Positions 10,727-49,031 of a DNA stretch of 59,916 nt are shown in pieces. The stretch is from the UHGV virus genome UHGV-0126570. One strand, written 5' to 3'. The DNA comes from a virus. Made by a program: the position numbers and the translations under genes. The notes below the pieces were generated by a model. That model did no database searches. It worked only from the letters and a program-made list of their open reading frames with translations, and was not told the origin of the DNA. Within the stretch, counting starts at the first letter, position 1. Each line of letters opens with the position of its first letter.

Positions 10727-10951
10727 ATGGTTAATGCCAATCCTTGCTCACGTCCAGAATTCATCTGGCGTTTTCACTCCCTGCAAAAACACTGCGATCA
10801 CTTCGCAATTGCCGCAACTGAAAAAGAAGCCCGTTCTCTGATCCCTGATCAGTATGGCGTTCTCACTGGTCGTTTCTCTACTTCCCCACAACCAAACACC
10901 AATCCCTGGTATCGCAATATTACCAATCCCGGCATTGCGGAGGCTCACTGA
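10727..10951 (+). CDS. Small protein, paralog of the 47875-48090 product
   Basis: 74 aa; shares EFIWRF(H/Y)S.QKH...AATE.EARS with the second copy, which supports a real gene. Confidence 0.5.
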   Translation: MVNANPCSRPEFIWRFHSLQKHCDHFAIAATEKEARSLIPDQYGVLTGRFSTSPQPNTNPWYRNITNPGIAEAH

Positions 10952-11658
10952 TGGATATCTGCATTCTCGAAAAGCCATCAATGACCAGCATTGAGATCGC
11001 GGAGCTGGTGGGAAAACGTCATGACAATGTGAAACGCACTATTGAGACATTAGCCAAAGGTGGCGTTATTGCTCGTCCTCAAATTGAGGTTTTCGAAAAA
11101 ATCAATAACTTAGGACTACGGCGTAGTGTTGAGGCTTACGTCTTCGAAGGCGAGCAAGGCAAGCGCGATAGCATTATCGTCGTCGCGCAGCTCTCTCCCG
11201 AATTCACTGCCCGGCTGGTGGACCGCTGGCGCGAACTGGAAGAACAAGTACGCCAGCCGTTGACCGAAATAGAGATGATCGCCGCAATGGCTGCAAATGC
11301 AGTTCAGCAGCAAAAGCGGCTTCATGCTGTTGAGTCAAAGGTTAGCCAGGTCGCTGAAACCGTCGAGCAAATCAAGAAAGGCAATATTCCGGAAGGCTAC
11401 ATTGGCTACCGCCAGCTGGCGGCGAAATGTGGCCTGACTGAAGCCAAATGTCGCAACCTGGTTAACGCTTACCGGATTCCCACCGATACACATGAGTTTT
11501 TAACTCCAGAGGGGGTATTGTCGCGTCGTTCCATCGTGGCCTTATCTCCCTTCATGAATGCTTTTAACCGGATGATGTCGGAGGCTGAACACCGAGGAAA
11601 ACGCTGGTATCACCCCAAAATGGGGCAATTCCAGGTGATCGGTTGGGGAGGTGAATGA
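10951..11658 (+). CDS. Rha-family phage regulatory protein (antirepressor-like), truncated relative to the paralog at 48090-49031
   Basis: N-terminal MTSIEIAELVGKRHDNVKRTIE is Rha-like; long stretches are near-identical at nucleotide level to the second copy (e.g. 11180-11240 vs 48320-48380). Confidence 0.55.
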   Translation: MDICILEKPSMTSIEIAELVGKRHDNVKRTIETLAKGGVIARPQIEVFEKINNLGLRRSVEAYVFEGEQGKRDSIIVVAQLSPEFTARLVDRWRELEEQVRQPLTEIEMIAAMAANAVQQQKRLHAVESKVSQVAETVEQIKKGNIPEGYIGYRQLAAKCGLTEAKCRNLVNAYRIPTDTHEFLTPEGVLSRRSIVALSPFMNAFNRMMSEAEHRGKRWYHPKMGQFQVIGWGGE

Positions 11659-11855
11659 TGGACATCATGCAAGCGGTAAAAAAAATCAGGGAAGAACAGG
11701 CTGAAGTGTGCCGCCGTAAAGCATGGAGTGTTGGTGTATGGGCCTGGCCTGATAATTACTCTACTACCGGATGGTTTTGTATTAATGGACTCCAGATCCG
11801 GGAAGTTTATTTATCGACGGCTGATATAGTCGGTAATGATTGGATCGTGACTTGA
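11655..11855 (+). CDS. Short ORF homologous to the C-terminus of the full-length Rha paralog (split gene fragment)
   Basis: EVCRRKAWSVGVWAWPDNY...DWIVT aligns with ...TVCRRSSWPEGIWVWPEGG...DWIVS at the end of the 48090-49031 product, so copy 1 appears interrupted. Confidence 0.45.
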   Translation: MMDIMQAVKKIREEQAEVCRRKAWSVGVWAWPDNYSTTGWFCINGLQIREVYLSTADIVGNDWIVT

Positions 11856-11887
11856 TGCGTGATGCCCCGGCCTGGCCGGGGCTTTTT

Positions 11888-12373
11888 TCATGCCTCATTA
11901 GTTGAGGTTGCTGCGTCTCCGACTGGTAACAGAGCGGTATTGCGTGGTTCGCCAGCAGGCCAGCGATAGCCAGACACTCTTGATGTTGGGAATGCGCGAA
12001 TATTAACCGCATCCCCCTGGTTCCCACCCAGGACAAGCAGATCGCCATTGGCGCGGCGTCCGACAACGAAGCCTACGTGCCCACCGCCTACGCGGGTAAA
12101 TACAACGATACATCCGTATGCCGGTGTATCTAATTTCTCGCCCCAATCCAGATAGGATTTTGCCGACTCAAATCTTGTTGAGCGGATGCCTACACGTTCC
12201 AGCATTGCACCGACAAATGCTGCGCACCACGGCGTTTCATCGTCTTTAATTCCGCCGCGCTTGATGTCGCGCCAGAACTGAACGATTTCAGGGTTGTGTT
12301 TAGCGCCTTTTATTTCAGTCAGGCCAATGTGCTTACGGGCTTCAATTAGCCAGCGAGGTTCAATGTTTGCCAT
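11888..12373 (-). CDS. NlpC/P60-type (CHAP-like) putative cell-wall hydrolase
   Basis: Cys in ETPWCAAFV and His in GGGHVGFVV with spacing typical of papain-like peptidoglycan peptidases (TIGR02594-like pattern). Confidence 0.5.
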   Translation of the reverse strand: MANIEPRWLIEARKHIGLTEIKGAKHNPEIVQFWRDIKRGGIKDDETPWCAAFVGAMLERVGIRSTRFESAKSYLDWGEKLDTPAYGCIVVFTRVGGGHVGFVVGRRANGDLLVLGGNQGDAVNIRAFPTSRVSGYRWPAGEPRNTALLPVGDAATSTNEA

Positions 12374-12448
12374 ATTTTTCTCTCGGTCATGGGTTAATAA
12401 GTAGGCAAACTATGGGGAGTATGTGATTTTGACGGTAGTATCGTCCCC

Positions 12449-15400
12449 GTGAAAATAACATTCTCCATACCCTCTCAACCGTACCGCATAGCGGATTTTT
12501 TACGGTTTAGAGGGGGTAATCCTTTGGATAAACTACTTCATTCAATCAGTGAAGCCTCCAGCTTAGGCGAACTGATTGAAATTGTTAGTCGGTTGCATAA
12601 ATTACGTGCTGTTGCGACCTTTGGCGTTAAGAAAGTCGATGGTGTCAGCATTCAAAAAACACGGCGGGCAGCAAACAACGCCGCAGTAGAGCTTCTTAAT
12701 TCCCTTCCGCCCGGCTTCGATGGGGCGAAATTAACTGACGAACAACGTCAGATTCTTTCCGGGTATACCGGTGAAGGCGGCCTGACAGATGGTGAGGGCA
12801 GCCAATACGAATACTACACACCACAGTTTATGGCTGAAGGTATATGGGATCTGTTTGCTGACTACGGTATTGATGGCGGGCACGTACTGGAACCATCAGC
12901 GGGCACAGGTATTTTCCAGGAGACAAAACGGCAGGGCATGATAATGACCAGCGCCGAACTATCTCCGATTTCCGGTCGAATAAACCAGCTTTTGCACCCG
13001 GAAGACGATGTGAATATCGGGGCGTTTGAGGCGCTGGCGGCGAAAGACGCAATGTATGACCACGCTGTTGGTAACGTACCGTTTGGTGAAGGGCGTTCCG
13101 GCGTTGCCGGGCTTGATCCGGCATATGCAAACGAGAAGAACGTTGGCAATTACTTTGTGCTGCGCACGATCGACAAGGTTAAGCCTGGTGGACTAATTGT
13201 ATTGGTGGTGCCGAATGGCATGACCGATGGTACGAAATACAAAAAATTGCGCGATAAAGTCAGCCGTAAAGCGGAATTTTTGGGCGCACATCGTATGCCT
13301 TCTGGTACGTTCAGCGAATCCGGTACAGATACAGTGGTGGACGTATGGGTATTGCGTAAACACCCGGAAACCTTCCTGGAGATGATCCCCGACACGGATG
13401 ATGCAACGCTCAAGTCGGCAAACGTCCTTTGGGATACCTTCCTCAAAGGGAAATGGTTTACAACCGAAGGGAAGCGATTTGTTTACGGCGATATGGAGCG
13501 TACCAGCTTCCGCAATACCCTGGTGGTGAAAAAGGACGGTCGTGTATCCAATGAGTCGATGAAAACCGCTCTATCGCGCCGCTTTGAAAGCCGCATTAAT
13601 TGGGATTTGCTTGGCGTAACTACTCAGGCATGGCAGGGCGCGAAAGTGGGCGATAAACGCCTTGTAGGCGGCATCTGGCATGAGTTTGATGGCCTGAAAT
13701 GGGTCAAGGACGCGACAACCAAATCCTCCGCGCTTGATGTAAATCGATATGGTGTTACGACGTTTGGTGATCTGCAGATCGCGTTTCAGTCAACAAATGG
13801 CATTCTGGCGTTGTCATGGGACCAGATATCAGCGATCGCGTCCGACTATCCGTCGGTTATCAGTGATGAAGTAGCGGCAATGATTCGCTTTGCTGGCAAG
13901 CAGAGAGAAAAAGATAGAGAACGCGTTATGCGCGGCGCACTGATAGGGCAGTTGATCAACAAGGCGCTTGATAAGCGTAATCTGGGGGAAAATGTTGATG
14001 ATGAACTTGCTGATGCCGCGCGCCTGGCGGAAGCCGAAATTGCGAAGTATGGTCCGCCGCACGCGATTAAGCTGAATGGGATTGCTGAAGCTGGCGCTAA
14101 AAACTGGATGACTTTCACTGGCAACGTGAAACAGGACGGCTCTGCTTCTGACCTCCTTGCTGGACGACTTGATGTAACGGATGGTGCTGCCGGTATTGAC
14201 TTTACACGCCCGGAACAAGTTGTAACCCACCTTTTCAGTGACGTGGCACTTAATCCAATCACACTGGACGATTTTCGTGAGGCGTTTGCTGGCGAACTGC
14301 CAGGAGACGACGATGCTGCTCTGGAATACCTGGCGAAATTTGATGATATCGCTATTGATGGGTATGGCTGCCTGCTGCCGATGGACCGCGCCACCAGCGG
14401 CGATATTGCAACCAAAACAGCATTGCTGGTGGGCTGGCGTGATGCGTCAACAGGTGAGCAGAAAGCGAACTTTGAGCGTCAGTTGGCGAAAATCGAAGAG
14501 AAACGCATTTTCACGCCACTAAATAAAGTCACCGTTAATCTGAACGCCCGCTGGCTGGATCGCCGCTTGATAAAAGAGTTCCTGGCAGAGCAGGGCTATG
14601 ACGAGTTTAAGTATACAGAACCCGACCTTAAGGTTGAGGACGGCATTCTGGTATCTCCGGACGATTACGAAGGTAAGGACGGGGTATTTACTGGCTATCA
14701 ACTACGAACCGTAAACGGCAAAAACGGGAATGAGTTCAAGAAGGCCAACAATAAAGACGGCTTCCTGAACCAGTTAGAAAACTACCTGAACGGCATTAAA
14801 CCGCGTGGGCAGAACGCTAACGAGTACCTGGATAAGATTGCTCAACTGGAAATTAGCTTCAACGACTGGTTACGCACTCACCCGCAGGCTGATCAGATAG
14901 CCCGCGACTATAACGACGCATTTAATGGCTTCATCCCGTTTACGCATTCTGACGCACCGCTTGGCCTGGAGGGGATTAGTGGGAAGCGCATTCCTCTGAC
15001 TTATCAGAATGAAGAAGTTCGTCGCTTATCAGAAGATGGGCGCGGCATCATGGGATTTGGCACCGGGCTGGGTAAAACCACGACCGCGCTTGCGCTTGAG
15101 GCGTATAACTTCGAAACAGGTCGCACTAAACGCACGTGTATTGTTGTTCCGAAGGCGGTTTATCAGAACTGGTATCACGAGGCACAGAGTTTCTACAGTG
15201 CTGATGCCTTCGCCAATATGATGTTTATCGGTTTGGATGAAGTTCGTGATGACAGCGGAAATATTCTGACCGCGCCGGTGCTTGATGAAAATGGCGAACC
15301 ACGCCTCGACAGTAACGGGCAGCCTCTTACCCGAAATGTTGTGAAAGAGTCCGCCAGCGCCGTTATCGTTCAGCGCATGAACATGATCCCGTCGTCAAAT

Positions 15401-18400
15401 TGGCGAACGGTCATCATGACAAAAGAGCAATTCGCGTCTATCCCGCTACGAGAAGAAACCATTGAGGAAAACTCACAGCAAGCGGTCTTTAATGCTGTGG
15501 AAATGGGGCGTCTTGACCTGGCATCTGGCAAACACCGTGACGCGCAGAAGAAGAATAAGATTAAGGACCAGGCCGCAAATACCGGTACAACGAAGAAGCA
15601 GAATATCCCGTACTTTGAGGATATGAACTTCGATAGCGTAATTGCCGACGAAGGGCATAACTACCGCAACTCCTTTAGCGCCGGGCGCGAAGCGGGGCAA
15701 CTGGCATATTTGCCTAACCCGGCAGTATCCAAAATGGCCCGCGACATGGCTGTAAAAGCTGCGTACATGATGAAACGCAACAACGGGCGTGGTGTGGTTA
15801 TGCTGACGGCAACACCGCTGGTGAACAGCCCGATTGATGCTTTCAACATGCTGTCTACTGTCATTCCGCAGGAAGAGTGGATGCGCATGGGTATTGTTAC
15901 GCCGGATGATTTCGTTCGCGTGTTCGGTAAAACAGCCACAGTTCAGGTTCAGAAAATTTCCGGTGAGGTGGAAGAGAAGCAGGGACTGGTGGGCTTCCAG
16001 AACCTGGATGGTCTGCGTGGTATTTTCCATCGCTGGACTACTCTGAAGACTGCTGCGGACGTCGGGGCGACGGTAAAAATCCCTGATATTGTCGAGAATA
16101 CCTTGCAGATCCCGATGACAGGAGAGCAAGAGGCCATTTACGAAGAACTTCGTAAGCGTGCACAGGAGTTAAGTAGTAAAGATGCGCTGACGGTCGATGA
16201 AAACGGGCATATCACAAACGAAAAACCGGATGATTTCATCTTCTCCATCATCCGCGACATGGATAAGGTTGCTATAGATCCTGATCTGTATGCCAGTGCG
16301 ATTACATTCCAGTTCCCCGTTGAGCTTGCAGACAAGGTAAAAGCTATTGCTGATGCCCTGCCAAAAGTAGCTGGCGGTAAAGTGGCAGATGATGCAGACG
16401 AGGCCGAAGAAGATGGCGCTGGTGGGCTGGCCAGTACGCGTACCAGCAAGGTAGTGAAGACCACCTTTAGCGAACATCCGTCGCATGTTGAAATACGTGC
16501 TGGCATTGAACTGGAAGCTGAAATACTGAAGGCCATTGCGGCTGCCGGTATTGATATGCAGCAGGTATCACACCCCATCCCGCCGAAGTATGCCGCGCTG
16601 ATCGAAAACCTTCGTGAAGGTCTGAAGAACGGTAAACAAATCGTCTTCATTGATGAAAAAGCCCAGCACCAGAAGCTGCGCCGTATTATTGCCAGTGCAC
16701 TGCAAATGCCGGAGCAGGAGATAGGCATTATCAATGCGACGACAGTTAGCCAGGCTGGCGGCGTCAAGCTGAAGAAGGTGAATAAGCCGACTGAACCTAC
16801 GCCAAATAAAAACGGTGAATACAAAGAAGGTGCATGGGAAACCTACTACAGTAAACTTGCCCAATATGAGGATTATCTCTCAGCTAAAAATGATGCTGGC
16901 CTTGAGGGCATGGAAGGTATTGCCGCCGACTATAACGAAGGTCGCACGCGCATCATAATCTGTAACAAGAAGGCTGAAGTAGGTATTAACTTGCACATCG
17001 GTACAACCGATATCCACCATCTGACACTACCCTGGACTCCTGCCAGTATCGACCAACGTAATGGGCGCGGCGCTCGGGTAGGCTCACCACAAGAAAAGGT
17101 CAATGTTCACTACTATTGTGGCAAAGGCACATTTGATGACTTCCGTCTGGATACGCTGAAACGTAAGAAGGACTGGATCAATATGGTGATGACCTCCGAC
17201 ATGTCAGAGATCGCCAATGGTGATGCGGATGACGCAGATGAACGCGCCATTATGCTGGCGGCAAATCCGGAAGAACGCCGTGCAATCATGAGTCGTCAGG
17301 CGCAAGAGCGTGAAGAACGTCTGAAACTGAAAGCCCTACGCGAAGCCAATAATGCTCTCGATAACTACCTGAAAGCGGCGAATGCTGCCGGGAAAGATAT
17401 CGGCATGATGGAGACAGAACTGAAAAGCGCGATGGAGCAGGTAGAGCATTACCAGCGCAATCTTGACGGCCTGATTAAAGCGGGGACGAACAGGAACGGG
17501 CAGAAATATGTTCTGGAACAGTTGCGAGACTACAGAAAACGTGTGCGGGAGCTACGCTTTGCGATCACCAGAGCTAAAGACGCTGACACCGTTATGAAAC
17601 GTTCTCGTGGTGATCTGGAACGTGCGATTAAAGCCGGGGTTCTGGAGCTTGATGCCGATGTATTGCAGAACCCACAGGAGTATGTACGCACTGAGAAAAA
17701 TATCTTGTTGCACAAGGGCAGCCATTATCGCGCGATCATCGATGAGAATCACAATACGACAGCAATTGTTCGTGTTACCGCCATTGATGCGGAAAGGGGC
17801 GGGTGTACGTGCCGCATATCCTGGCTGGATGTGGCTAGTCGTTACTCTCGTTCTCCGGGGACGGCATTATTTTTGCCCTTTAACCTGATAATTGAATCGG
17901 TAACCTTTGAAGAGGGAGTTGCAGAATCGCGTGAAACAGCTGCACGTGGTGTTCAATGCCACCAGCTATCAACAACACTTACGCGCGATCAGTTCTATGA
18001 TGCTATTCGCAATGGGGTAATGAATGTCACTGCCGGGAAGCCTGGTAGAGTATGGGGCGGTGGTTCAGCTATTAAATACTGGGCTTATCGCACCGATGAT
18101 GGTCAGATTGCACTGTCATCGGCTTATGATGGCGTAATAGGTCAAAAAATCGGGCGAGCATCGGATATAGCGCCTGAGCGGTGGATTTACCCTGATGGCA
18201 ACGATGAGGCGCTGAAGCGTGAAGTGGCAAAAATACAAGCCAGTGATAACCCGCTGAATGTCGTGGACGGCGAGGGATTCCTCCAGGCATTGTATGGATA
18301 TGATTACATCCAGGGAATGCAGGCATGGGGGGCACAGGCCACGATGGATGATGTTTCCCAGGAGTTTGAAAACTGGATGGCAGGGCGTGGTTTGTCCGGT

Positions 18401-19363
18401 CGCTCACTTAATAAAGTTACTTCTGAAGATATTCTTAGCCTGTTCCGTAAACCGTCCGGAGAAGGGCTGGAATCTTTCTGGAAGACCGTGGTGGCATACC
18501 GTTTATTCCAGGGCAGGATGAAAGCCTTTAGCAACACTGATGACATTGAACGGATGTTTAATCAGGTGAAGGCCGCGAAAATTACGGCGAAAATTGAGAA
18601 AACACGAGCTGCGCTGGTGGCCTGGCGCGATGCATTGTTTGAGCAATATAAATCACTCAGCGATGCCGATGGCTGGTCGGCATTGGAGCAGCTGGCTAAT
18701 AATGGTGTCGATGGAGCGAAATTAGCCATTGTTCAGGCCGATAATCCTCTGGATTCGCCAGCAGCGCAGTGGATTAAGGTGGGGGCTGTCATCAATGCAT
18801 TTGATGAAAAACACATTAGTAAGGACGATTTTGCTGATGCTGTTTCCATTAACCGCCTGGTAGAAATGGCTGTCCGCCGTGCTCGTGCTTTGAAAGACGG
18901 GGACTATGTGAATGAGTTACCAGATGCGCTCAAATCGGCAACGTGGCAAGACTATGTATCGCTGAAAAACGGCGGAGCCACCGAATCAGAGATCGCAGAA
19001 AGACTTGAGCAGGCTGAAAGCAAAAGAGAAGAGCAGGCGGCAGTGGCAGAAGCCAGAGCTGAAGAAGCTGCGAACGATGATTATATCATTGTGGTTAATG
19101 ATAAGCCGATTCGCGCTAAAGCCCGTGTTCGCGGGCGCTGGTGGAGTGTCAGTGAAGATGTGGGAGCCGTTTATCTCATTGCCGATCAGCCCGGTTCCTC
19201 GACAATACGGAACGCCAAGGACGCGATTAAGAAGATTGGCGGGCGTTTCTGGAATTTTGAAGCAAACCCGGTTGCTGATGTGAACTTTGACCGTCCGGCA
19301 TGGATGGTATCTACGCGTTACTCGGTAGATGAACTGCGTAAAATAATCGCCGATGCGGCCTAA
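12449..19363 (+). CDS. darB: DarB-like giant antirestriction protein (N6-adenine methyltransferase fused to SF2 helicase)
   Basis: 2304 aa. MTase motif I (VLEPSAGTGIF) and motif IV-like (GNVPFGEG); helicase Walker A (GFGTGLGKTTT), DExH box (VIADEGHNY) and motif VI (QRNGRGAR). Size and domain order match P1 DarB. GTG start. Confidence 0.85.
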   Translation: MKITFSIPSQPYRIADFLRFRGGNPLDKLLHSISEASSLGELIEIVSRLHKLRAVATFGVKKVDGVSIQKTRRAANNAAVELLNSLPPGFDGAKLTDEQRQILSGYTGEGGLTDGEGSQYEYYTPQFMAEGIWDLFADYGIDGGHVLEPSAGTGIFQETKRQGMIMTSAELSPISGRINQLLHPEDDVNIGAFEALAAKDAMYDHAVGNVPFGEGRSGVAGLDPAYANEKNVGNYFVLRTIDKVKPGGLIVLVVPNGMTDGTKYKKLRDKVSRKAEFLGAHRMPSGTFSESGTDTVVDVWVLRKHPETFLEMIPDTDDATLKSANVLWDTFLKGKWFTTEGKRFVYGDMERTSFRNTLVVKKDGRVSNESMKTALSRRFESRINWDLLGVTTQAWQGAKVGDKRLVGGIWHEFDGLKWVKDATTKSSALDVNRYGVTTFGDLQIAFQSTNGILALSWDQISAIASDYPSVISDEVAAMIRFAGKQREKDRERVMRGALIGQLINKALDKRNLGENVDDELADAARLAEAEIAKYGPPHAIKLNGIAEAGAKNWMTFTGNVKQDGSASDLLAGRLDVTDGAAGIDFTRPEQVVTHLFSDVALNPITLDDFREAFAGELPGDDDAALEYLAKFDDIAIDGYGCLLPMDRATSGDIATKTALLVGWRDASTGEQKANFERQLAKIEEKRIFTPLNKVTVNLNARWLDRRLIKEFLAEQGYDEFKYTEPDLKVEDGILVSPDDYEGKDGVFTGYQLRTVNGKNGNEFKKANNKDGFLNQLENYLNGIKPRGQNANEYLDKIAQLEISFNDWLRTHPQADQIARDYNDAFNGFIPFTHSDAPLGLEGISGKRIPLTYQNEEVRRLSEDGRGIMGFGTGLGKTTTALALEAYNFETGRTKRTCIVVPKAVYQNWYHEAQSFYSADAFANMMFIGLDEVRDDSGNILTAPVLDENGEPRLDSNGQPLTRNVVKESASAVIVQRMNMIPSSNWRTVIMTKEQFASIPLREETIEENSQQAVFNAVEMGRLDLASGKHRDAQKKNKIKDQAANTGTTKKQNIPYFEDMNFDSVIADEGHNYRNSFSAGREAGQLAYLPNPAVSKMARDMAVKAAYMMKRNNGRGVVMLTATPLVNSPIDAFNMLSTVIPQEEWMRMGIVTPDDFVRVFGKTATVQVQKISGEVEEKQGLVGFQNLDGLRGIFHRWTTLKTAADVGATVKIPDIVENTLQIPMTGEQEAIYEELRKRAQELSSKDALTVDENGHITNEKPDDFIFSIIRDMDKVAIDPDLYASAITFQFPVELADKVKAIADALPKVAGGKVADDADEAEEDGAGGLASTRTSKVVKTTFSEHPSHVEIRAGIELEAEILKAIAAAGIDMQQVSHPIPPKYAALIENLREGLKNGKQIVFIDEKAQHQKLRRIIASALQMPEQEIGIINATTVSQAGGVKLKKVNKPTEPTPNKNGEYKEGAWETYYSKLAQYEDYLSAKNDAGLEGMEGIAADYNEGRTRIIICNKKAEVGINLHIGTTDIHHLTLPWTPASIDQRNGRGARVGSPQEKVNVHYYCGKGTFDDFRLDTLKRKKDWINMVMTSDMSEIANGDADDADERAIMLAANPEERRAIMSRQAQEREERLKLKALREANNALDNYLKAANAAGKDIGMMETELKSAMEQVEHYQRNLDGLIKAGTNRNGQKYVLEQLRDYRKRVRELRFAITRAKDADTVMKRSRGDLERAIKAGVLELDADVLQNPQEYVRTEKNILLHKGSHYRAIIDENHNTTAIVRVTAIDAERGGCTCRISWLDVASRYSRSPGTALFLPFNLIIESVTFEEGVAESRETAARGVQCHQLSTTLTRDQFYDAIRNGVMNVTAGKPGRVWGGGSAIKYWAYRTDDGQIALSSAYDGVIGQKIGRASDIAPERWIYPDGNDEALKREVAKIQASDNPLNVVDGEGFLQALYGYDYIQGMQAWGAQATMDDVSQEFENWMAGRGLSGRSLNKVTSEDILSLFRKPSGEGLESFWKTVVAYRLFQGRMKAFSNTDDIERMFNQVKAAKITAKIEKTRAALVAWRDALFEQYKSLSDADGWSALEQLANNGVDGAKLAIVQADNPLDSPAAQWIKVGAVINAFDEKHISKDDFADAVSINRLVEMAVRRARALKDGDYVNELPDALKSATWQDYVSLKNGGATESEIAERLEQAESKREEQAAVAEARAEEAANDDYIIVVNDKPIRAKARVRGRWWSVSEDVGAVYLIADQPGSSTIRNAKDAIKKIGGRFWNFEANPVADVNFDRPAWMVSTRYSVDELRKIIADAA

Positions 19364-23801: not shown

Positions 23802-23878
23802 GATGGTGTAGCTCAGTAGGATAGAGCAGCAGCCTTCTAAGCTGTCGGTCGGTGGTTCGAATCCACCCACCATCGCCA
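23802..23878 (+). tRNA. tRNA-Arg (anticodon UCU; decodes rare AGA)
   Basis: Manual cloverleaf: acceptor GATGGTG/CACCATC, D-arm GCTC-AGTAGGATA-GAGC, anticodon stem GCAGC/GCTGT with loop CTTCTAA, T-arm GGTGG-TTCGAAT-CCACC, encoded CCA. Confidence 0.8.
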
Positions 23879-23880: not shown

Positions 23881-23956
23881 GCCGGTTTAGCTCAGTTGGT
23901 AGAGCGCCTGCCTTGTAAGCAGGATGTCAGCGGTTCGAGTCCGTTAACCGGCACCA
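23881..23956 (+). tRNA. tRNA-Thr (anticodon UGU)
   Basis: Acceptor GCCGGTT/AACCGGC, D-arm GCTC-AGTTGGTA-GAGC, anticodon stem CCTGC/GCAGG with loop CTTGTAA, T-loop TTCGAGT, encoded CCA. Confidence 0.8.
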
Positions 23957-25493: not shown

Positions 25494-25569
25494 GGCCCCT
25501 TAGCTCAGTGGTTAGAGCTGGCGACTCATAATCGCACGGTCACCGGTTCAAGTCCGGTAGGGGCCACCA
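25494..25569 (+). tRNA. tRNA-Ile2 (anticodon CAU, lysidine-type; decodes rare AUA)
   Basis: GGCCCCTTAGCTCAGTGGTTAGAGC...CTCATAA...GGTTCAAGTCC...AGGGGCCACCA; acceptor and D-arm essentially identical to E. coli ileX. Cannot be formally distinguished from elongator Met by sequence alone. Confidence 0.75.
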
Positions 25570-30431: not shown

Positions 30432-31469
30432 TTACCAGAGTTTAGCGGCGTGCTGTGTTTGGGAGAAAGTGAACCCGTAACGTTCTTCTATGGTTTTACC
30501 GTATCTTTTCCGCGCGTCTGTCAGTTTTATGCCTGTCAGGTCATCTCCGGATGTCATCATTACGTCTAACAACTCCAGATCCATTTTATTCAGTCTCGCC
30601 ATCGCTTCGCGTGCTGTCTGTATTTTACGCTCAATGATATGGCGAATAGCCGGATCGGCTTCCTCAAGCATTTTGGCTGATTTGTTCTTTAAGCTCTCAT
30701 TGCGGATGTCGATGTTTCGCAAGATGTATGACTTCGCAACATAGCTTGGTTGGTGTTTCTCCAGATCGCGAACGCGATAGAGACTAAAGTCACCAAGCAG
30801 GCCGCAAGGTATCGACTCAACCCCAGAATAAATAGTAATGCTGCGACGTTCGCCGACATTATTAACAACGGGCACTGTGGTGTTCGGAAGTTTTGCGAAC
30901 ACTAAGGCTCCGTGTGCGCCTACCCTGAATCGTGACAGAGCATTGCTGCCTTCAATGTTTGTTGTAAGCACTACATCTGTGTATCCATCTTTGCGCGCCC
31001 GGTAAACTTCCCCTTCAGGTTCTGATGCGAAAAAACGGCGCTCTTCTTCAAGTGCACCAACAATCTGCGAAAATATCTTGTTTTTCAGGCTTTTCTTTAT
31101 AATTGCATCATATTTTTTGAGCAGATTTTCGCGCGTAAATGAGCGGGTGGTGGTCGCGCTTTGCACAACAATATGCGTGCTTTGATTTGTGTCCTCGATA
31201 ATGAATGGGATCGGAGAATATACAGACTCAACAATGTTAGACGCTTTGCCGTCAGCGTTACGGCACAAGTCAACAAAGGCTTTCCATTCTGTGAGGCACT
31301 TTTCAGCTTCTTCTAGCACATTCTGATCATGTGTTAGTGCAACATGGCGGAATTCCTCGCCGGAATAACTGGTATCATGGAAAACAGAGTTTGCGACCAC
31401 CAGCTCTTTCCACCGTTCAGCGGTTTGCAGGAACCGTTTGTACTCTTTCTCGATCGACTTCTTACTCAT
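30432..31469 (-). CDS. Hypothetical protein (345 aa); candidate immunity-region regulator
   Basis: Only gene between pacB and the lox-like site, divergent from cre; three operator-like motifs lie in its upstream region (31488-31497, 31572-31582, 31666-31674). Repressor role is positional inference only. Confidence 0.3.
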   Translation of the reverse strand: MSKKSIEKEYKRFLQTAERWKELVVANSVFHDTSYSGEEFRHVALTHDQNVLEEAEKCLTEWKAFVDLCRNADGKASNIVESVYSPIPFIIEDTNQSTHIVVQSATTTRSFTRENLLKKYDAIIKKSLKNKIFSQIVGALEEERRFFASEPEGEVYRARKDGYTDVVLTTNIEGSNALSRFRVGAHGALVFAKLPNTTVPVVNNVGERRSITIYSGVESIPCGLLGDFSLYRVRDLEKHQPSYVAKSYILRNIDIRNESLKNKSAKMLEEADPAIRHIIERKIQTAREAMARLNKMDLELLDVMMTSGDDLTGIKLTDARKRYGKTIEERYGFTFSQTQHAAKLW

Positions 31470-33301: not shown

Positions 33302-33774
33302 AAACTTATTACCCATCTCTGAATTGTTACCCGTCTTCCTATCCAGAATTATCCGGGAAGCTGTTAGCTCTATTAGCTAAAGCACCTACGGAATGGTTTA
33401 AGCCAGTCGTTATCAATCCACACTTCCTGGATTACGGATCTGTTCGCACTCGTAACGAACTCAAAAACCTACTGGCGCATGGATTCATTCGACACCGTGC
33501 CGGGAAAGGCTATCAGTTAGCGATTGCGCCAGAAGAGGCCGTGCGGCTATTCGCATATCGTGACAGCCAGACAAAAGCTCGGGTAATAGCTCAAATACTT
33601 CATAACGGCAGCACCTATGCCCGCCAGTTTGGCGGCGACACGTCGCAGTTCTTGCGGGCGGTGCGATCGCTGGAGGAGCAAGGAGTTATTGAAAGTTCCT
33701 GTCTTCCTGTTCCTACCGTTCCACATATCAAACGTCGGGTTTACACCTTCACGCAGAGAGCTAAAAAACAATGA
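33298..33774 (+). CDS. Hypothetical protein with winged-helix-like segments
   Basis: GTG start overlapping the upstream stop; two helix-turn-wing-like stretches (NLLAHGFIRHRAGKGYQLA, LRAVRSLEEQGVIES). Confidence 0.4.
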   Translation: MKTYYPSLNCYPSSYPELSGKLLALLAKAPTEWFKPVVINPHFLDYGSVRTRNELKNLLAHGFIRHRAGKGYQLAIAPEEAVRLFAYRDSQTKARVIAQILHNGSTYARQFGGDTSQFLRAVRSLEEQGVIESSCLPVPTVPHIKRRVYTFTQRAKKQ

Positions 33775-34265
33775 TTTACGTAAAAGTGAAACGCCTACAT
33801 CCGGCAGCAAAACTTCCAGCTTATGCCACCTCCGGATCGGCGGCGATGGATTTTGAGGCTGTTGAAATAAAACCATGCGTCGATAGCAATGGTGCAATTT
33901 CCTCAAGCTGGTGGGTGTATACCGGACTGGCTATGGAGATCCCGCCCGGCTGGTGTCTGAAACTCTATCCGCGATCAGGATTGGGCTGCAAAAAACATAC
34001 TCGCCTGGCTAACTGCGTAGGAATTATCGACTCCGATTATCGCGGCGAAATCATGGCAAAACTGATTACTGATCCAGGCGGGGAAGGCGTTTGTCTCAAG
34101 CCTGGAATGGCTGTCATGCAAGGAATTTTTGAGCGTGTTGAACAAGTCTCACTAGTCGAGGTTGAGGAACTCAACGAAACGGAGCGTGGTGCTGGTGGCT
34201 TTGGTAGCACATCGGAAGGCCACTTTGAAATTAAGCGTTCACCGCTTCAGTACGAAAAGTTATAA
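33771..34265 (+). CDS. dut: dUTP diphosphatase (trimeric dUTPase)
   Basis: Motifs AAMDF, RSGLG, GIIDSDYRGEI, ERGAGGFGSTS in canonical order. Confidence 0.85.
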   Translation: MIYVKVKRLHPAAKLPAYATSGSAAMDFEAVEIKPCVDSNGAISSSWWVYTGLAMEIPPGWCLKLYPRSGLGCKKHTRLANCVGIIDSDYRGEIMAKLITDPGGEGVCLKPGMAVMQGIFERVEQVSLVEVEELNETERGAGGFGSTSEGHFEIKRSPLQYEKL

Positions 34266-34279: not shown

Positions 34280-34957
34280 ATGAATAACAAGCCAACGAAA
34301 GAGCTTTTTAAGCTCCTTCCCAAATACAAAGCTCACAAAAACGTTAGTGCATCGAAAATCAAAAATGTTGTTATTTTCGGAGTAACTGATACCCCACTTT
34401 GGGGCAGCATCGAACTCGTTGAACCTAAAGGGGCAACAGTTTGTGTTGACGCAATGTTTTTACAAAAACACCGACCAAAAACTGGCGGGTATCTGATCGT
34501 TTATGAAAACGGTTATCTGTTCTATGCCCCGGAGAAACCATTTGAGGAACGCTATGGCCTGGTTAACGACGCCTCCAAAAATGGAACCACGGTCATCATT
34601 ACGGATGACAACGGCGAGATGATTAATCTTACCGGGAGCGTAACTATTTCTGCTGGTGGCATCACCACCCAGCAAGAAGAAATCGACCTTGAAGCAGCCG
34701 ACTTTTCTGACGCGCTGATGTGGCTGAAGGATGGCAAGAAAGTTGCTCGACGCGGGTGGAACGGCGAAAACCAATTTTGCTGGCTGGTTCCTGAAGGACA
34801 GTACCCGGCACGAATGGAAGCCATTAAGGGATATTTCCCCGGCGACCTCGTTCCGTATGGTGCTTATTTCGCCTTAAAAAATGCACAAGGTGTAGTTGTT
34901 CCGTGGGTGCCTTCAGTTGGCGACCTGCTGGCCTGTGACTGGTTTGTTGTGGAGTGA
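34280..34957 (+). CDS. Fusion protein: unknown N-terminal domain plus C-terminal DUF2829-like (Tad2-like) domain
   Basis: C-terminal DALMWLKDGKKVARRGWNGENQFCWLVPEG ... VVPWVPSVGDLLACDWFVVE follows the DUF2829 signature (A..W.K.GKKV.RRGWNG ... PW.pS..DLLA.DW.vvE) as recalled from memory. Confidence 0.45.
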   Translation: MNNKPTKELFKLLPKYKAHKNVSASKIKNVVIFGVTDTPLWGSIELVEPKGATVCVDAMFLQKHRPKTGGYLIVYENGYLFYAPEKPFEERYGLVNDASKNGTTVIITDDNGEMINLTGSVTISAGGITTQQEEIDLEAADFSDALMWLKDGKKVARRGWNGENQFCWLVPEGQYPARMEAIKGYFPGDLVPYGAYFALKNAQGVVVPWVPSVGDLLACDWFVVE

Positions 34958-41927: not shown

Positions 41928-41940
41928 TGCGTTGTTCCCA

Positions 41941-43008: not shown

Positions 43009-43040
43009 CGATTTTGAGCGCGTAAACGATGTAACCCGGC

Positions 43041-43724: not shown

Positions 43725-43948
43725 TCTGCAACATCCTCCAAATCAGCAACCGCGTCCATCACATCAGAACCGCGAATAACTTCAAAAGCGCGGCAGGCCA
43801 TTTGAAATACCTGTTGTTCTTGCGGGTGCGGAGACTCCCAATATTTGAAGCCTGGGCGATGCGTGTACCCCATCATGGAATAAAAATCGCCAGCAAGTTC
43901 AATCGCGGCATCAACAAGTTCGCGATTAGTCATTCGCTTTGCTGCCAT
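43721..43948 (-). CDS. Hypothetical small protein (75 aa)
   Basis: ORF with ATGA coupling. Confidence 0.35.
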
Positions 43949-44926: not shown

Positions 44927-45285
44927 GCTGATTCCCTTTGCTCTTCCTGGATAATGTTGTTGCAATCTTTCACGCACTCGTTGCAGATGAAAACGTTGTC
45001 CCCGGCAATTAACTTTTTAACGGTGTGCTGGGATTTGTTGCAGAAGCTGCAATAAAGCGTTGAACTTGCTGATACGGATGGTGCGCCAGATGTCAGCCGC
45101 GCGATGTCGTTCTTGCGACGCAATATCACACGGCTGCACTCGACCAGCATCTCCGGGGATATCTTCTCCTCCGTAGCGAGCGTTTCTAATCGTTCGAGTA
45201 TGTGGAAGGCTTTTTCCTGGGTAATCCTGGGTAATTCAGCGTTACGCTCTGCCAGTTGTGCGGGCGTTAAACCTTCAGACTTCAT
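44923..45285 (-). CDS. Small protein with ClpX-type C4 zinc finger
   Basis: C-terminal [36 protein letters not shown] closely resembles the ClpX N-terminal zinc-binding domain. Confidence 0.55.
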
Positions 45286-45592
45286 ACACTCTCCTTTCGA
45301 AATAAACGTACTGATTAATCATGCCCAGGGGCATTTCGAGTTTTTCCGCGATCTCACGGCGGGGAACACCACACTGATGAAGCTGCCGTGCCAGTTCTAT
45401 ATCGCTCTGCCGGTATTTGGCTGACGGATGAAAGTCTCCTTTCAGAATCATGCTGATCCCCAGCTCCCGCGCTTTGGTCCTGACGGCATCACCGGTACGA
45501 CCGATCAGCTTCCCAATACTCTCTACCGTCATAGTTCCGGCGCACTGGCGGAGTATCATGATTTCTGCCCTTCCCCATCCCCGCCAGCTCAC
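45275..45592 (-). CDS. HTH protein (105 aa)
   Basis: Two helix-turn-helix-like stretches ([22 protein letters not shown]; [18 protein letters not shown]). Confidence 0.35.
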
Positions 45593-46239
45593 GCCGACAT
45601 CCTCTGAGACATAAACTCCACAAAACGAACTGCATCTTCAGAAACAACGCCGCATGACTTCAGATAATTCATTGCGTCATTAGGTAGCGGATTAGTTGGT
45701 TCGGCATTTGCCAGGGATTGAGATAAACGCGTGATTAATTTGACCATTCTCCGCTGCCGGAGGTTGTATCCTTCAGCTAAAGACAGGTAACTGGAAAGGG
45801 TATTGCTTAAGCGGGCGCGAAGCTGATCCGTGCCGTGACATTCAATAGCAACATCACGTAACGCATCGACCAGTTCACGGTAAAGATGCGCTGCCATTCT
45901 GCAATCTGTGTCAGATGGTGCTTCATAAATTACCGTCAACCCCAGTTTTTCAGCCAGAGCGTGTTCTGCACGTGCTCCTGCGGACACATCCCATCCCTTA
46001 AGCAGATAGATCGCATCAGCAGAACGCACCATTGCCAGGCAAATATCCATGTATTCACTCTGACAAAGGCCACCAGGTAACACAGCTGGATTCAGAACGA
46101 TATGCCCTTCAGCCATCAGCTCGCTCGCTTTCGCATTAAACGCCGCACGGTTGTAATCTGGATAACCAGTCATCGGCCCCGCGATGTAAATTTTCAAAAC
46201 ACGTTTCACCATCAAAATTTCCCCAAAATCGTGACGCAA
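45589..46239 (-). CDS. DUF4406-like (nucleoside 2-deoxyribosyltransferase-like) protein with C-terminal extension
   Basis: N-terminal KIYIAGPMTGYPDYNRAAF...LNPA...IYLLKGWDVSAGARAEHALAEKLGL matches the DUF4406 pattern; ~100-aa C-terminal extension. Confidence 0.45.
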   Translation of the reverse strand: MRHDFGEILMVKRVLKIYIAGPMTGYPDYNRAAFNAKASELMAEGHIVLNPAVLPGGLCQSEYMDICLAMVRSADAIYLLKGWDVSAGARAEHALAEKLGLTVIYEAPSDTDCRMAAHLYRELVDALRDVAIECHGTDQLRARLSNTLSSYLSLAEGYNLRQRRMVKLITRLSQSLANAEPTNPLPNDAMNYLKSCGVVSEDAVRFVEFMSQRMSA

Positions 46240-46406
46240 AACATAAGCACTGCGAAAAGCTCAATACCAAGCTCAAGTAGCGCCAACGCCCCGAAAAACA
46301 ACACATAGAACAGGCCAATTTCATTCACAGATGGCTGGTGGATCGCACTTAAAGCTATAAGCATCATGTCCTCCAAACAGTTATCAGGAATGATATTAAT
46401 GTTTTG

Positions 46407-46436
46407 TGTTAGAAAATCAATTTTGAATATCTAACA
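46407..46436. promoter_or_regulatory. Palindromic operator-like element TGTTAGA-N16-TCTAACA in a divergent promoter region
   Basis: Between the minus-strand operon start (46239) and the plus-strand Ref-like gene (46485). Confidence 0.5.
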
Positions 46437-46484
46437 ATTTTGATCAATCATAGAAAAATCGTTGAAAAGTAAGAGACTGCCATC

Positions 46485-47063
46485 ATGCAGAAACAGAGTT
46501 ATTGGGAGAAACAGAGACAAAAAGCCATGCAAAAATTGGCTGACCCAGCCTGGCGAGAGGAACAAAGGGCAAAGCGCCTTCAACAAGCTCAACGCCAGCA
46601 GCAGCGAGCGAGAGAAAAAGCCGCATCGCCTGAATATCGGCAAAAGAAAATTGAAAAAGCAAAGCAATATGAACAGCGGAGAAAAGATAAAGCGGTATCC
46701 GCTCCGCCCAAAAAAACACGCACGTCACGCGGCCTGAAGGGCAGATCACTCACAGCCGATGAACGCCGGATACAGACCGCTATCGGTACTCTCCCCTGCA
46801 TTGCCTGCCATATTCACGGGCAACATAGCCCAGTGGTATCCCTGCACCATATCTTCGGGAGAACGGCAGAGAACGCGCATAAATATGTCCTCCCTTTGTG
46901 TAAATGGCACCACCAGTACGCAGCGCCAGCCGAGGTCCGAGAACAATATCCCTGGCTGGTCCCTGTTCATGCTGATGGAAAAATAGGCGGAAAAGCAGAT
47001 TTCATGCGGCACAATGCCGATGAAATGACGTTGTATCAGATGGCGATTGAATTGATAAATTAG
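46485..47063 (+). CDS. Ref-like HNH endonuclease (basic disordered N-terminus plus His-Me finger core)
   Basis: N-terminal ~90 aa highly basic (QKQRQKAMQK...RRKDK); C-terminal LPCIACH..HGQH..SLHHIFGR..H..LPLCKWHH. Architecture matches P1 Ref; the identity is an inference. Confidence 0.4.
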   Translation: MQKQSYWEKQRQKAMQKLADPAWREEQRAKRLQQAQRQQQRAREKAASPEYRQKKIEKAKQYEQRRKDKAVSAPPKKTRTSRGLKGRSLTADERRIQTAIGTLPCIACHIHGQHSPVVSLHHIFGRTAENAHKYVLPLCKWHHQYAAPAEVREQYPWLVPVHADGKIGGKADFMRHNADEMTLYQMAIELIN

Positions 47064-47394
47064 TTTTCTAACATTTTAAGTTGAATTGTAAATTTCTCCG
47101 ATGTACATTCACTACCGATTGGCACACCGGTCAACTTTTTGAGACAAACTGTTTAGTTTTTCGTATTATTGCCGCCGCTATACCTATGGCGGTGCAATAT
47201 AGGTGGCTGAAAAGCCCCCGTTGACTCACGGTGTTCCAGCCTTTATTGCGCCGCCACCAGACCGTGGAACAGTCGATGGCGGCTCCGAAAGCAAGGAGTC
47301 ACTACACTATGAACAGCTACTGTCTTTTCCCATCACTCGTTGTCCGCCACTCACGCGATAATCTGCATTCTTTACTCGCGCTGGGGGTGTCAAA

Positions 47395-47562
47395 ATGACC
47401 GTTCGCTACCTCAACTTTCAAATCCAGAACATCACTGGCGGTTGCTATGACTGGTTTGTCACTCTCGGAAAAGAAGTGATCACCGGGAAGCTGGATGAAG
47501 TGAAAGCTAAAGCAATGGCCTACGCCTGCAAGCAAGCCCGGAAGAAATCCGCCAAAGCATAA
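47395..47562 (+). CDS. Possible small ORF (55 aa)
   Basis: ATG preceded by GGGGG; competes with an antisense 72-codon ORF (47317-47535). Coding status uncertain. Confidence 0.2.
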   Translation: MTVRYLNFQIQNITGGCYDWFVTLGKEVITGKLDEVKAKAMAYACKQARKKSAKA

Positions 47563-47667
47563 AATACTGACTGTTGCGCCATGGCATTATCGTGGGGTAT
47601 ATTTCTACGGCACCTTAGAAAAACGGGTGCCGGGATTGGAACCCCGGATAATGTCAAAGGCGACACA

Positions 47668-47689
47668 GACGCCGAAAGCGTCTTTTTTT
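47668..47689 (+). terminator. Rho-independent terminator
   Basis: GACGC-cgaaa-GCGTC followed by TTTTTTT. Confidence 0.7.
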
Positions 47690-47874
47690 GTGTCATGCCA
47701 TCGCACAGCCATACGTAGCGTTTAGCTCAGAGATCAATGGTAGTGCTGGCTGGGCTGCCGAAAGGCAGGCCGGTTCCCTTTGACGCCGGTAGTTCCAACC
47801 CAGTCAGTGCTACCGCCATTGAGATTGGAACCTCACGCGGTAGCTCCTTAACTTAGTCAAAGGAGGCTGCCAAT

Positions 47875-48090
47875 ATGGCTACTATCCCTACCCCAACTCA
47901 TTCTGAATTTATCTGGCGTTTCTATTCCTGCCAAAAACACCTGTATATCTGCGTCATGGCTGCTACCGAAGCAGAAGCTCGTTCATACCTTCCTGAAGAA
48001 CCCTGCATTTTTGCCGCACGCTTCACTCTTGATGCGATGGAGATCCTAAATTACTGGAATCTGCCAATGAACTGCGTGGAGGTGCACTGA
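47875..48090 (+). CDS. Small protein, paralog of the 10727-10951 product
   Basis: 71 aa sharing the EFIWRFYSCQKH...AATEAEARS block. Confidence 0.5.
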   Translation: MATIPTPTHSEFIWRFYSCQKHLYICVMAATEAEARSYLPEEPCIFAARFTLDAMEILNYWNLPMNCVEVH

Positions 48091-49031
48091 TGAATCTGTC
48101 CATCTCTCAAAAAGCGACAATGACCAGTATTGAGATCGCGGAACTGGTAGGTAAGCGTCATGATAATGTGAAGCGTACCATTGAAGTATTAACTAAAGGT
48201 GGTGTCATTCAATTTCCTCAAATTGAGGAAATTGAAAATAAACAATCAGTTGGCCCTCGTCGATTTTCCAAGGCTTACATATTTGAAGGCGAACAAGGAA
48301 AACGAGACAGCATCATTGTCGTCGCGCAGCTCTCTCCGGAATTCACCGCCCGGCTGGTGGACCGCTGGCGCGAACTGGAGAATGCCCGGGTACAGTTAAA
48401 ATCAAAAGCCGAAATCCTGGCTGAAATGGCGCAAATGCATCTTGAGCATGAACGCCGGATCAACGCCGTAAATGCCCAGGTAGCCGAGGTATCAGCACAA
48501 GTATCGATGGTCGCTGAAACACTCGAGCAAATAAAGAAAGGCAATATTCCGGAAGGCTACATTGGCTACCGCCAGCTGGCGGCGAAATGTGGCCTGACTG
48601 AAGCCAAATGTCGCAACCTGGTTAACGCTTTCCGGATTCCCACCGATACGCATGAGTTTTTAACTCCAGATGGTTTGCTTGCGCGACGCTCCATTGTGGC
48701 CCTGGCCCCCTTCCGGAAAGCCTTTAAGCAGGTGATGTCGGAGGCAGAACCACGCAATAAACGCTGGTATCATCCAAAGATGGGGATGTTTCAGGCAATC
48801 CACCATCCTGTGCCTGAAAGCCCAAAGGATAATCTGTCACTACATACCGTCAGAGAGAAGATCAGGACTGGATACGCAACAGTGTGTCGTCGTTCTTCCT
48901 GGCCTGAAGGTATATGGGTGTGGCCCGAAGGTGGATCACGAAAGCACTGGCGCACCATCCGTGACGGGAAAATCCATGCTATTGATTTAGCTCCAGAGGA
49001 TGTTATTGCTATGGACTGGATTGTTAGTTAA
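48090..49031 (+). CDS. Rha-family phage regulatory protein (full-length copy)
   Basis: N-terminal MTSIEIAELVGKRHDNVKRTIE; 313 aa, including the C-terminal W-rich segment that is a separate ORF in copy 1. Confidence 0.55.
   Translation: MNLSISQKATMTSIEIAELVGKRHDNVKRTIEVLTKGGVIQFPQIEEIENKQSVGPRRFSKAYIFEGEQGKRDSIIVVAQLSPEFTARLVDRWRELENARVQLKSKAEILAEMAQMHLEHERRINAVNAQVAEVSAQVSMVAETLEQIKKGNIPEGYIGYRQLAAKCGLTEAKCRNLVNAFRIPTDTHEFLTPDGLLARRSIVALAPFRKAFKQVMSEAEPRNKRWYHPKMGMFQAIHHPVPESPKDNLSLHTVREKIRTGYATVCRRSSWPEGIWVWPEGGSRKHWRTIRDGKIHAIDLAPEDVIAMDWIVS

Follow-up and report, generated by a model that had tools for sequence, protein, structure and literature searches.

The virus genome UHGV-0126570 (59,916 nucleotides, nt; this whole stretch is called the window below) has two copies of a short module in which a gene for a small protein precedes the gene of a Rha-family regulator. 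Both copies lie on the + strand, at 10727-11855 and 47875-49031, as a previous sequence-only reading of the DNA had claimed, and the W-rich carboxyl-terminal segment of the regulator is indeed coded in the first copy by a separate 66-codon open reading frame (ORF; 11655-11855, 66 amino acids, aa). A C4 antisense RNA is found about 50 nt upstream of the small gene, icd, in each module and on the same strand (Rfam scan). The window is very likely a plasmid-prophage akin to Escherichia phage D6 that carries two paralogous, separately controlled operons of the phage P1 immI type, which are old copies whose ant tracts were homogenised by exchange.

Module 1 has the following parts:

10452-10480, +: promoter-like site, TTGATC-17-TATATT, aligning with P1 promoter P1c4/P51b
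10474-10533, +: leader with the C4 targets a1 (TTGACAG, 10512-10518) and b1 (GTTAGTGC, 10526-10533); Rfam c4-a1b1, RF03163
10600-10676, +: C4-1 antisense RNA, 77 nt, with the b' loop TCACTAAC (10636-10643) and a' CTGTCAA (10650-10656); Rfam C4, RF01695, equal to P1 c4
10680-10716, +: targets a2 (10680-10686) and b2 (GTTAGTGA, 10709-10716), the latter entering the GAGG ribosome site of icd1; from the P1 a2/b2 annotation
10727-10951, +: icd1, Icd-like protein of 74 aa, similar to P1 Icd (phrog_1426); its stop overlaps the ant1 start (TGATG, 10949-10953)
10951-11658, +: ant1, putative Rha/Roi-type antirepressor of 235 aa without the carboxyl-terminal domain (Phage_pRha; phrog_63 'anti-repressor Ant'; D6 orf18)
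11658-11855, +: W-rich stand-alone ORF, 65 aa (66 aa from the ATG at 11655), with a predicted Tad2-like (DUF2829) fold; its start overlaps the ant1 stop (phrog_7385; D6 orf17)
11864-11889, +: intrinsic terminator closing the operon, eight G-C pairs followed by a T run, found in the sequence

The leader of this module matches c4-a1b1 with 54.4 bits (threshold 46.7), and the C4 family gives 68.8 bits at 10594-10679 (threshold 45). The 77 nt at 10600-10676 are 100% identical to the P1 c4 RNA. Targets a1, a2 and b2 have the annotated P1 sequences at the P1 spacing, and b1 also matches P1, over 7 nt as compared by script and at the eighth base as read from the sequence. Icd1 is 61% identical to P1 Icd.

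Module 2 is organised as follows:

47539-49395, +: accessory cassette of 1.86 kb that holds the leader, C4-2, icd2, ant2 and a pmgF-like ORF (49091-49402), delimited by comparison with plasmid pTB423
47610-47690, +: IsrK-like leader (Rfam isrK, RF01394) with a1 (TTGGAAC, 47636-47642), b1 (GTCAAAGG, 47653-47660) and an intrinsic terminator (stem 47667-47683 and T run)
47733-47820, +: C4-2 antisense RNA (Rfam C4) with b' CCTTTGAC (47777-47784) and a' GTTCCAA (47792-47798)
47825-47866, +: targets a2 (47825-47831) and b2 (GTCAAAGG, 47856-47863), overlapping the AAGGAGG ribosome site of icd2; from site comparison
47875-48090, +: icd2, Icd-like protein of 71 aa, 45% identical to Icd1 (phrog_1426, E 4e-41); its stop overlaps the ant2 start (TGATG, 48088-48092)
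48090-49031, +: ant2, putative Rha/Roi-type antirepressor of 313 aa whose last residues, 248-313 (48831-49028), are the fused Tad2-like domain; from profile matches and D6 orf82

Here the leader matches isrK (62.7 bits, threshold 50) instead of c4-a1b1. C4-2 scores 77.1 bits at 47733-47820 against the same C4 threshold of 45, and its a' and b' sequences sit in the junction and the loop of the RNA. TGATG stop/start overlaps join icd to ant in both modules and ant1 to the small ORF. Residues 11-98 of both Ant proteins match Pfam Phage_pRha (PF09669) with 36.9 bits for Ant1 and 37.3 bits for Ant2 (cutoff 29.9), and the PHROG families of the two proteins are named anti-repressor.

Antisense specificities and the proposed switch

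The recognition sequences of module 1, TTGACAG/GTTAGTGA, are those of P1, while module 2 has TTGGAAC/GTCAAAGG. The two modules differ at three of seven positions in a and at four of eight in b; P1 and P7 differ at two positions in each. To place these differences among relatives, 80 related loci were taken from IMG/VR viral contigs, C4 was located in them by profile, and loops and targets were tabulated alongside six reference modules (both of the window, both of D6, and those of P1 and P7). Eight a/b combinations occur in the reference modules and about 40 IMG/VR loci, and in all of these a' fits both a1 and a2 and b' fits both b1 and b2:

module-1 scaffold, TTGACAG/GTTAGTG: P1, the window and 8 loci
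module-1 scaffold, TTGACAG/ACTTACG: D6 and 2 loci
module-1 scaffold, TTAGCAG/GATTGTG: P7
module-1 scaffold, TTAGCAG/GTTAGTG: 2 loci
module-1 scaffold, TTAGCAG/ACGAATG: 5 loci
module-2 scaffold, TTGGAAC/GTCAAAGG: the window and 12 loci
module-2 scaffold, TTGAGAC/GCAAAAGG: D6 and 2 loci
module-2 scaffold, TTGGAAC/GCAAAAGG: 8 loci

Sequences a and b assort independently, and one locus codes an Ant2 protein identical to that of the window yet has a different b. The anatomy of the operons and the covariation of C4 loops with their targets are established, and nothing argues more strongly than this covariation that the two modules function as antisense switches. Since the two C4 RNAs differ in recognition sequence, the switches should be independent of each other. 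Duplex energies calculated for whole C4 molecules and their targets were uninformative, the calculation unfolding the C4 stem, and the direct comparison of sites was used instead.

By analogy with P1, a single transcript from each module would carry in turn a leader with the decoy targets a1/b1, the C4 RNA, the true targets a2/b2, with b2 over the icd ribosome site, and then icd and ant; in module 2 the IsrK-like leader is predicted to carry its own terminator. In the prophage state the processed C4 RNA would pair with a2/b2 and block translation of icd, leaving the coupled ant gene silent. If C4 were outrun or titrated away, production of Icd and Ant would shift the element towards lytic growth, with Ant presumably counteracting a D6-type C1 repressor. 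A C1 homologue is coded on the minus strand at 30432-31469. Minor immI differences between P1 and P7 are credited with the heteroimmunity of these phages (PMC6906374). The co-changing loops and targets suggest strong selection to escape the immunity of a neighbour, and two antisense locks of this kind amount to a naturally occurring collection of RNA repressors with orthogonal targets.

Distribution of the modules and exchange between the ant genes

Aligned from end to end, the two module regions share 95.5% and 90.9% identity with phage D6. Gene order and split in D6 are those of the window: its first site has the icd-like orf19, the 'anti-repressor' orf18 (235 aa) and the hypothetical orf17, and its second site the icd-like orf83 followed by the 'anti-repressor' orf82. 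Each module also occurs in about 100 E. coli, Salmonella and Shigella plasmids, 89-97 kb in size. Because D6 and these plasmids carry both modules, the duplication is a trait of the phage-plasmid group that is already known, the second module being recorded in the D6 annotation and in a 2019 paper. What seems to be unrecorded are the orthogonal and combinatorially varying C4 specificities, the map of exchange tracts and the Tad2-like fold of the detachable domain. For annotation, this means that what is recorded as a "Rha regulator" pair on ~90-kb phage-plasmids of E. coli and Salmonella is an immI-type switch, whose C4 RNA most records leave unannotated.

The module 2 region is an accessory part of these elements. 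In plasmid pTB423 (NZ_CP034790.1, 67189-67266) about 78 nt with a terminator hairpin replace window positions 47539-49395, while its module 1 is the best relative of the window module, with 99.9% identity. The best relatives of module 2 (99.2%) are other plasmids, and their module 1 is only 95.3% identical. P1-like phage RCS47 (NC_042128.1, 103405-105004; L089) has an unannotated module-2-type leader, C4 and 5' part of icd, 90% identical to 47609-48011, which precede a different ant of 372 aa between pacB and c1 (see also PMC6906374); with this set RCS47, too, has a second immI-like module. The absence of module 2 from pTB423 and the pairing of its front end with a 372-aa ant in RCS47 show that this regulatory front end travels as a cassette, combined with different effectors.

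Comparison of the window with itself by BLAST gives two collinear matches between the copies, 10939-11244 with 48078-48382 (79.7% identity) and 11349-11625 with 48509-48785 (87.5%, E 4e-87), and no further repeat longer than 95 nt. The near-identical stretches that the sequence-only reading had judged by eye are real, and their identity is as high as it appeared: 59 of 61 positions are the same between 11180-11240 and 48319-48379 and 138 of 141 between 11370-11510 and 48530-48670, the second-copy positions lying 1 and 10 nt away from those first given. They include a perfect run of 97 nt (11374-11470 and 48534-48630), while in 10 shuffled versions of the window exact repeats reached at most 14-18 nt. 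Sequence next to these stretches diverges, as had also been noticed, with 20-57% identity between copies in 11246-11349. At the protein level the copies share 70% identity in Ant over 237 aa, 45% in Icd, and 40% between the 66-aa ORF and Ant2 residues 256-313.

The ant genes were then aligned from ten genomes that have both modules (the window, D6 and eight viral contigs), which delimits two exchange tracts:

10981-11245, + (partner ~48120-48384): exchange tract 1, hypervariable amino-terminal Rha domain with alleles common to both loci; 2+4 fixed differences and 38+10 shared polymorphisms
11350-11505, + (partner 48510-48665): exchange tract 2, 151 of 156 positions identical; 0 fixed differences and 15 shared polymorphisms

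The 104 nt that separate the tracts (11246-11349) have 52 fixed differences and 2 shared polymorphisms, and 11506-11655 has 35 fixed and 5 shared. Because Icd is only 45% identical and fixed differences fill half of the 104 nt beside an almost identical block, the copies must be old paralogues. Paralogy and exchange tracts are established observations, and they indicate that gene conversion or homologous exchange, acting episodically on the two ant genes, produced the near-identical blocks. In the central tract the window ant1 has 3-10 differences from ant2 alleles and 6-17 from other ant1 alleles, while its ant2 tract is a typical ant2 allele; as the ant1 tract is nearer to ant2 alleles than to most ant1 alleles, this points to overwriting of the ant1 central block by an ant2-type donor in the window lineage.

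The sequence-only reading had offered gene conversion or recent duplication as the source of the blocks. Conversion is borne out by the absence of fixed differences among 15 shared polymorphisms and by the ant2-like ant1 tract. The 97-nt perfect run and the 87.5% identity over 277 nt would also suit a recent duplication, but this part of the proposal does not agree with the divergence of Icd, the unlike C4 scaffolds and leaders, the fixed differences beside the identical block and the presence of both modules in D6 and about 100 plasmids.

The blocks could also stay alike without exchange if their nucleotide sequence were itself constrained, for instance by a promoter, an RNA element or a binding site lying within it. 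A covarying palindrome lies in the amino-terminal coding region of ant (see below), and block 11157-11247 is 67-93% identical even in lambdoid homologues, with similar DNA in Pseudomonas and Ralstonia phages. This explanation is nonetheless very improbable. In the central tract, ant1 shares only 57-80% identity with Roi-type homologues of lambdoid origin, and a universal nucleotide constraint was rejected for that block on this ground. Orthologues also vary more there (10.4 and 7.7 differences in 136 nt, with 10.8 between paralogues) than in the left flank (~2 in 91), and the variation consists of polymorphisms common to both loci, a signature of exchange.

It is somewhat unlikely, though a serious candidate, that the shared tracts stem mainly from recombination between co-infecting phage-plasmids or with lambdoid roi genes, intragenomic conversion being minor. 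Paralogues of the same genome differ on average by 10.8 nt in 136 and those of different genomes by 11.6, which counts against homogenisation within one genome: much of it may have taken place by inter-plasmid recombination. The modules also reassort among plasmids, with pTB423 having a nearly identical module 1 and no module 2 and the closest module 2 relatives a more distant module 1, and the amino-terminal alleles are mosaic and common to lambdoid Roi genes. On the other side, alleles that cross from locus 1 to locus 2 or back need at least some ectopic exchange, and the ant1 block of the window is of ant2 type, the nearest ant2 alleles including the window's own. Since same-genome pairs are on average no closer than cross-genome pairs, exchange between the old paralogous operons was episodic, with a contribution from inter-plasmid recombination.

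A 97-bp identity could in principle support recombination between the copies, and deletion of the ~37-kb interval through the direct repeats had been proposed. The deletion junction was found in none of 594 matching plasmids and none of 781 matching complete E. coli genomes, so that the proposal has a single metagenome contig in its favour. This 10.7-kb contig, L022 (IMGVR_UViG_3300013958_000038), has a hybrid junction with window 8449-11244 upstream and 48076-49931 downstream, and joins repL, a P1-type C4 scaffold and icd1 to a fused 313-aa ant in the module 2 downstream context. It may stem from a rare natural recombination or deletion, or from chimeric assembly across the repeat; as a single, possibly chimeric contig whose junction is in no finished replicon, it was not accepted as proof of deletion. 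Between its two modules, D6 carries c1, pacA, pacB, lpa, tRNAs, darB, cre/rox, phd/doc and humD; pTB423, a close relative, has its plasmid replicon (repB) and parM outside this interval. A deletion of the interval would remove the repressor, packaging genes and addiction module.

Other features of the window were noted near and beyond the modules. Downstream of module 1, a CHAP-domain peptidoglycan hydrolase is coded on the opposite strand (11888-12373) ahead of a 2304-aa DarB-like methyltransferase/helicase ORF (12449-19363, +), which lies directly downstream of the module. Three tRNA genes (23802-23875, 23881-23953 and 25494-25566, +) have their counterpart in the Ser/Thr/Asn region of D6. 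Positions 53232-53313, between an ORF ending at 53204 and a minus-strand ORF (53276-53635), hold an exact direct repeat of 45 nt with an offset of 37 nt, making ~2.2 tandem copies. Inverted repeats of ~90 nt with 79-80% identity (116-210 and 1029-1121) flank a 193-aa ORF (107-688) and may be part of an invertible tail-fibre segment with its recombinase.

The Ant proteins and the detachable Tad2-like domain

The detached carboxyl-terminal segment of copy 1 had been taken as a possible sign of decay. The split is the normal state of this locus: D6 has it (orf18/orf17), as have 17 of 18 module-1 loci of IMG/VR viral contigs, the remaining one being frameshifted, and the best 40 of 110 plasmid matches are annotated as a Rha gene plus a hypothetical protein, as in module 1 of the window. 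The small ORF matches the stand-alone family phrog_7385 end to end (E 2e-48), a family that the Ant2 carboxyl terminus matches too. Its TGATG coupling to ant1 is kept, the operon is closed by a strong terminator, and the ant1 core is under strong purifying selection, with a ratio of nonsynonymous to synonymous polymorphism (pN/pS) of 0.09; the same holds for the ant2 core and the fused domain, with values of 0.11 and 0.14.

It is thus hardly credible that a single Rha module was recently duplicated and that copy 1 is decaying through a frameshift or stop that severed its end. In some genomes the broken copy is in fact Ant2. In L026-L029 and other module-2 loci it is interrupted (ORFs of 212, 225, 164 and 45 aa), leaving the domain as an ORF of 81-98 aa; such freed domain ORFs (P0009, P0011, P0014 and P0015) are in some records called 'transcriptional regulator'. 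The detached small ORF of module 1 has a pN/pS of 0.63 on few sites, a relaxed value that does speak for decay and weighs on the side opposed to the reading of two old, working operons. The stand-alone ORF is intact and conserved, though perhaps less constrained.

By sequence the W-rich ORF belongs to a narrow family, with three related proteins found in a word-indexed search and seven representatives in an exhaustive HMMER search. Two of the relatives match Pfam PF11195 'Thoeris anti-defense 2-like', formerly DUF2829 (P0007 with E 3.6e-9 and 37.4 bits, cutoff 25; P0005 with E 6.2e-5 and 23.9 bits). Alignment of the W-rich domain by hhalign to the DUF2829 domain coded elsewhere in the window gives E 0.0022 at a probability of 13%, and a search of the domain profile against PDB sequences returned only chance-level matches. 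An AlphaFold2 model of the 65-aa ORF has a mean predicted local distance difference test score (pLDDT) of 93.5 from an alignment of 10 sequences. Searched against the PDB with Foldseek, this model has Tad2 as all its top 18 matches (8sme, 8smf, 8smg, 8wje, 9eib and 8v3e), with query-normalised template modelling (TM) scores of 0.70-0.75 and probabilities of 0.99-1.00; the next match after these chains has a probability of 0.08. The modelled W-rich domain has a Tad2-like (DUF2829) fold, which forms part of the established picture as far as the structure prediction goes.

A canonical Tad2-like/DUF2829 domain (PF11195, E 1.8e-22) is also present in the window, at residues 141-224 of a 225-aa protein coded at 34280-34957 (+) beside a dUTPase (33771-34265) and corresponding to D6 orf114. 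The element has therefore three Tad2-fold domains, this canonical one and two divergent ones in the immI modules. Databases label the 313-aa proteins only 'Rha family transcriptional regulator', without PF11195 annotation, and the searched literature on Tad2 sponges has no mention of Tad2 fused to an antirepressor. The structural match raises the idea that the domain is a working binder of nucleotide signals within the lysis-lysogeny switch, either an anti-defence sponge or a sensor that ties the antirepressor to host immune signalling; this is a long shot, of clearly low probability. If true, the sponge form would be supplied right at the onset of infection or induction, ahead of any build-up of C4, and the immI modules with their two orthogonal C4 locks would be a meeting point of superinfection immunity and anti-defence. 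A Tad2-like domain on or beside an antirepressor is in any case a testable lead linking the induction switch to anti-defence.

The model of full-length Ant2 is poor (mean pLDDT 50.2) and was kept out of the fold search. It suggests a layout with a winged-helix amino terminus, a long helix (83-149), an alpha/beta domain (157-219) and a beta-rich carboxyl terminus. The coding region of the amino terminus contains a further element:

48208-48236, unstranded: 29-nt palindrome with 14-bp arms in the amino-terminal coding region of ant2; a degenerate core is found in ant1 at 11077-11089

Its variants (CCTCAA-A-TTGAGG, CCTCCA-A-TGGAGG, CCTGCA-T-TGCAGG and CCACAG-A-CTGTGG) occupy the same codon positions in L005-L084. 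The palindrome is kept by compensatory changes that alter the protein; its arms reach 14 bp in ant2 and, in 26 lambdoid loci, 12 bp. Clerget and Boccard reportedly described in 1996 that Roi of phage HK022 binds a site within roi. The palindrome may be such a site bound by Roi within its own gene, or an RNA hairpin.

These features leave room for proteins of the Rha/Roi type being site-specific DNA-binding regulators that act on the palindrome of their own gene and are not antirepressors, in which case the modules would control something other than C1. The winged-helix Rha domain at the amino terminus, the lack of similarity to P1 Ant and the palindrome conserved by protein-altering changes all agree with this alternative, which we consider unlikely. 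The genes occupy the ant position of P1 immI and the matched PHROG families are named anti-repressor. The closest precedent from experiment is the prophage Gifsy-1, in which an IsrK leader and a short ORF precede the gene of the anti-repressor-like AnrP, coupled to that ORF, and expression of AnrP induces the prophage (PMC4825925). DNA-binding and antirepressor activities can also coexist in one protein.

An antirepressor role for Ant would thus follow from operon position, analogy and database names. Some results weigh against the reading of the window as a pair of immI-type switches that act on a prophage repressor. BLASTP comparison of Ant2 with P1 Ant1 (E 0.21) and KilA (E 0.74) detected no relation, for which reason the name 'antirepressor' rests on operon position and database names. 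The P1 operator consensus, sought in the whole window with up to 3 mismatches, has no match, this consensus being that of P1, which may not be that of a D6-type C1; the motif ATTGCTGAAATTTTTAG beside promoter 1, sought as a D6-type operator, has no second copy. Neither the 66-aa ORF nor the Ant2 carboxyl terminus has a direct match in Pfam, even at E 10.

Comparison with known systems

The order of parts (a1/b1, C4, a2/b2, icd and a coupled downstream gene) and the variation of recognition specificity among relatives are common to the window and to immI of P1 and P7. The window differs in having two modules per genome and in its effector, which is of the Rha/Roi type and unrelated by BLASTP to P1 Ant1/Ant2. 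There is no in-frame Ant1/Ant2 pair; instead, the Tad2-like domain is fused or coupled. In the window repL lies upstream of the module, while that of P1 is downstream, and no match to the P1-type C1 operator was found.

Phage D6 has the same two modules, at the same locations and with the same split (orf19/18/17 and orf83/82), as has pYU39_89. It differs from the window in recognition sequences, with b ACTTACGA in module 1 and a TTGAGAC, b GCAAAAGG in module 2. The window has other amino-terminal Ant alleles and a more homogenised central tract, in which three 30-nt intervals are 100% identical between copies, compared with 93, 100 and 83% in D6.

The Gifsy-1 region isrK-orf45-anrP-isrJ of Salmonella resembles module 2 in its leader, which matches isrK including the terminator, in the short upstream ORF translationally coupled to an anti-repressor-like gene, and in the RNA between leader and ORF, the stable processed STnc1160 in Gifsy-1 (PMC4825925) and a predicted C4 here. 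Unlike orf45, the upstream ORF of the window codes a 71-aa Icd-like protein; the window is a plasmid-prophage, while Gifsy-1 is an integrated lambdoid prophage. Gifsy-1 has isrJ downstream of the anti-repressor gene, and the window has no isrJ match at the Rfam gathering threshold.

Roi of HK022 and HK97 and Rha of P22 share with the window the amino-terminal Phage_pRha domain, 64-68% protein similarity collinear over Ant residues 1-237, and the palindrome at the matching position of the gene. These lambdoid genes have no C4/icd ahead of them and lack the Tad2-like domain. Several lambdoid Roi-type loci (L033, L035-L060, L063, L064 and L070) have a C4-like RNA ~280 nt downstream of the gene (at ~3472-3646), and some a second one ~650 nt beyond the first, a layout that recalls the Gifsy-1 isrK region.

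Finally, the 65-aa model fits the structures of the anti-Thoeris sponges Tad2 (DUF2829, PF11195) of SPO1 and Myroides with TM scores of 0.70-0.75, and its RR..W ... D..DW pattern aligns end to end with the DUF2829 domain coded at 34280-34957. The window domain is ~10-25 residues shorter than the matched chains of 73-96 residues, with which it shares 13-17% identity. Unlike those sponges, it lies within an immunity operon, fused to a regulator or coupled with it.

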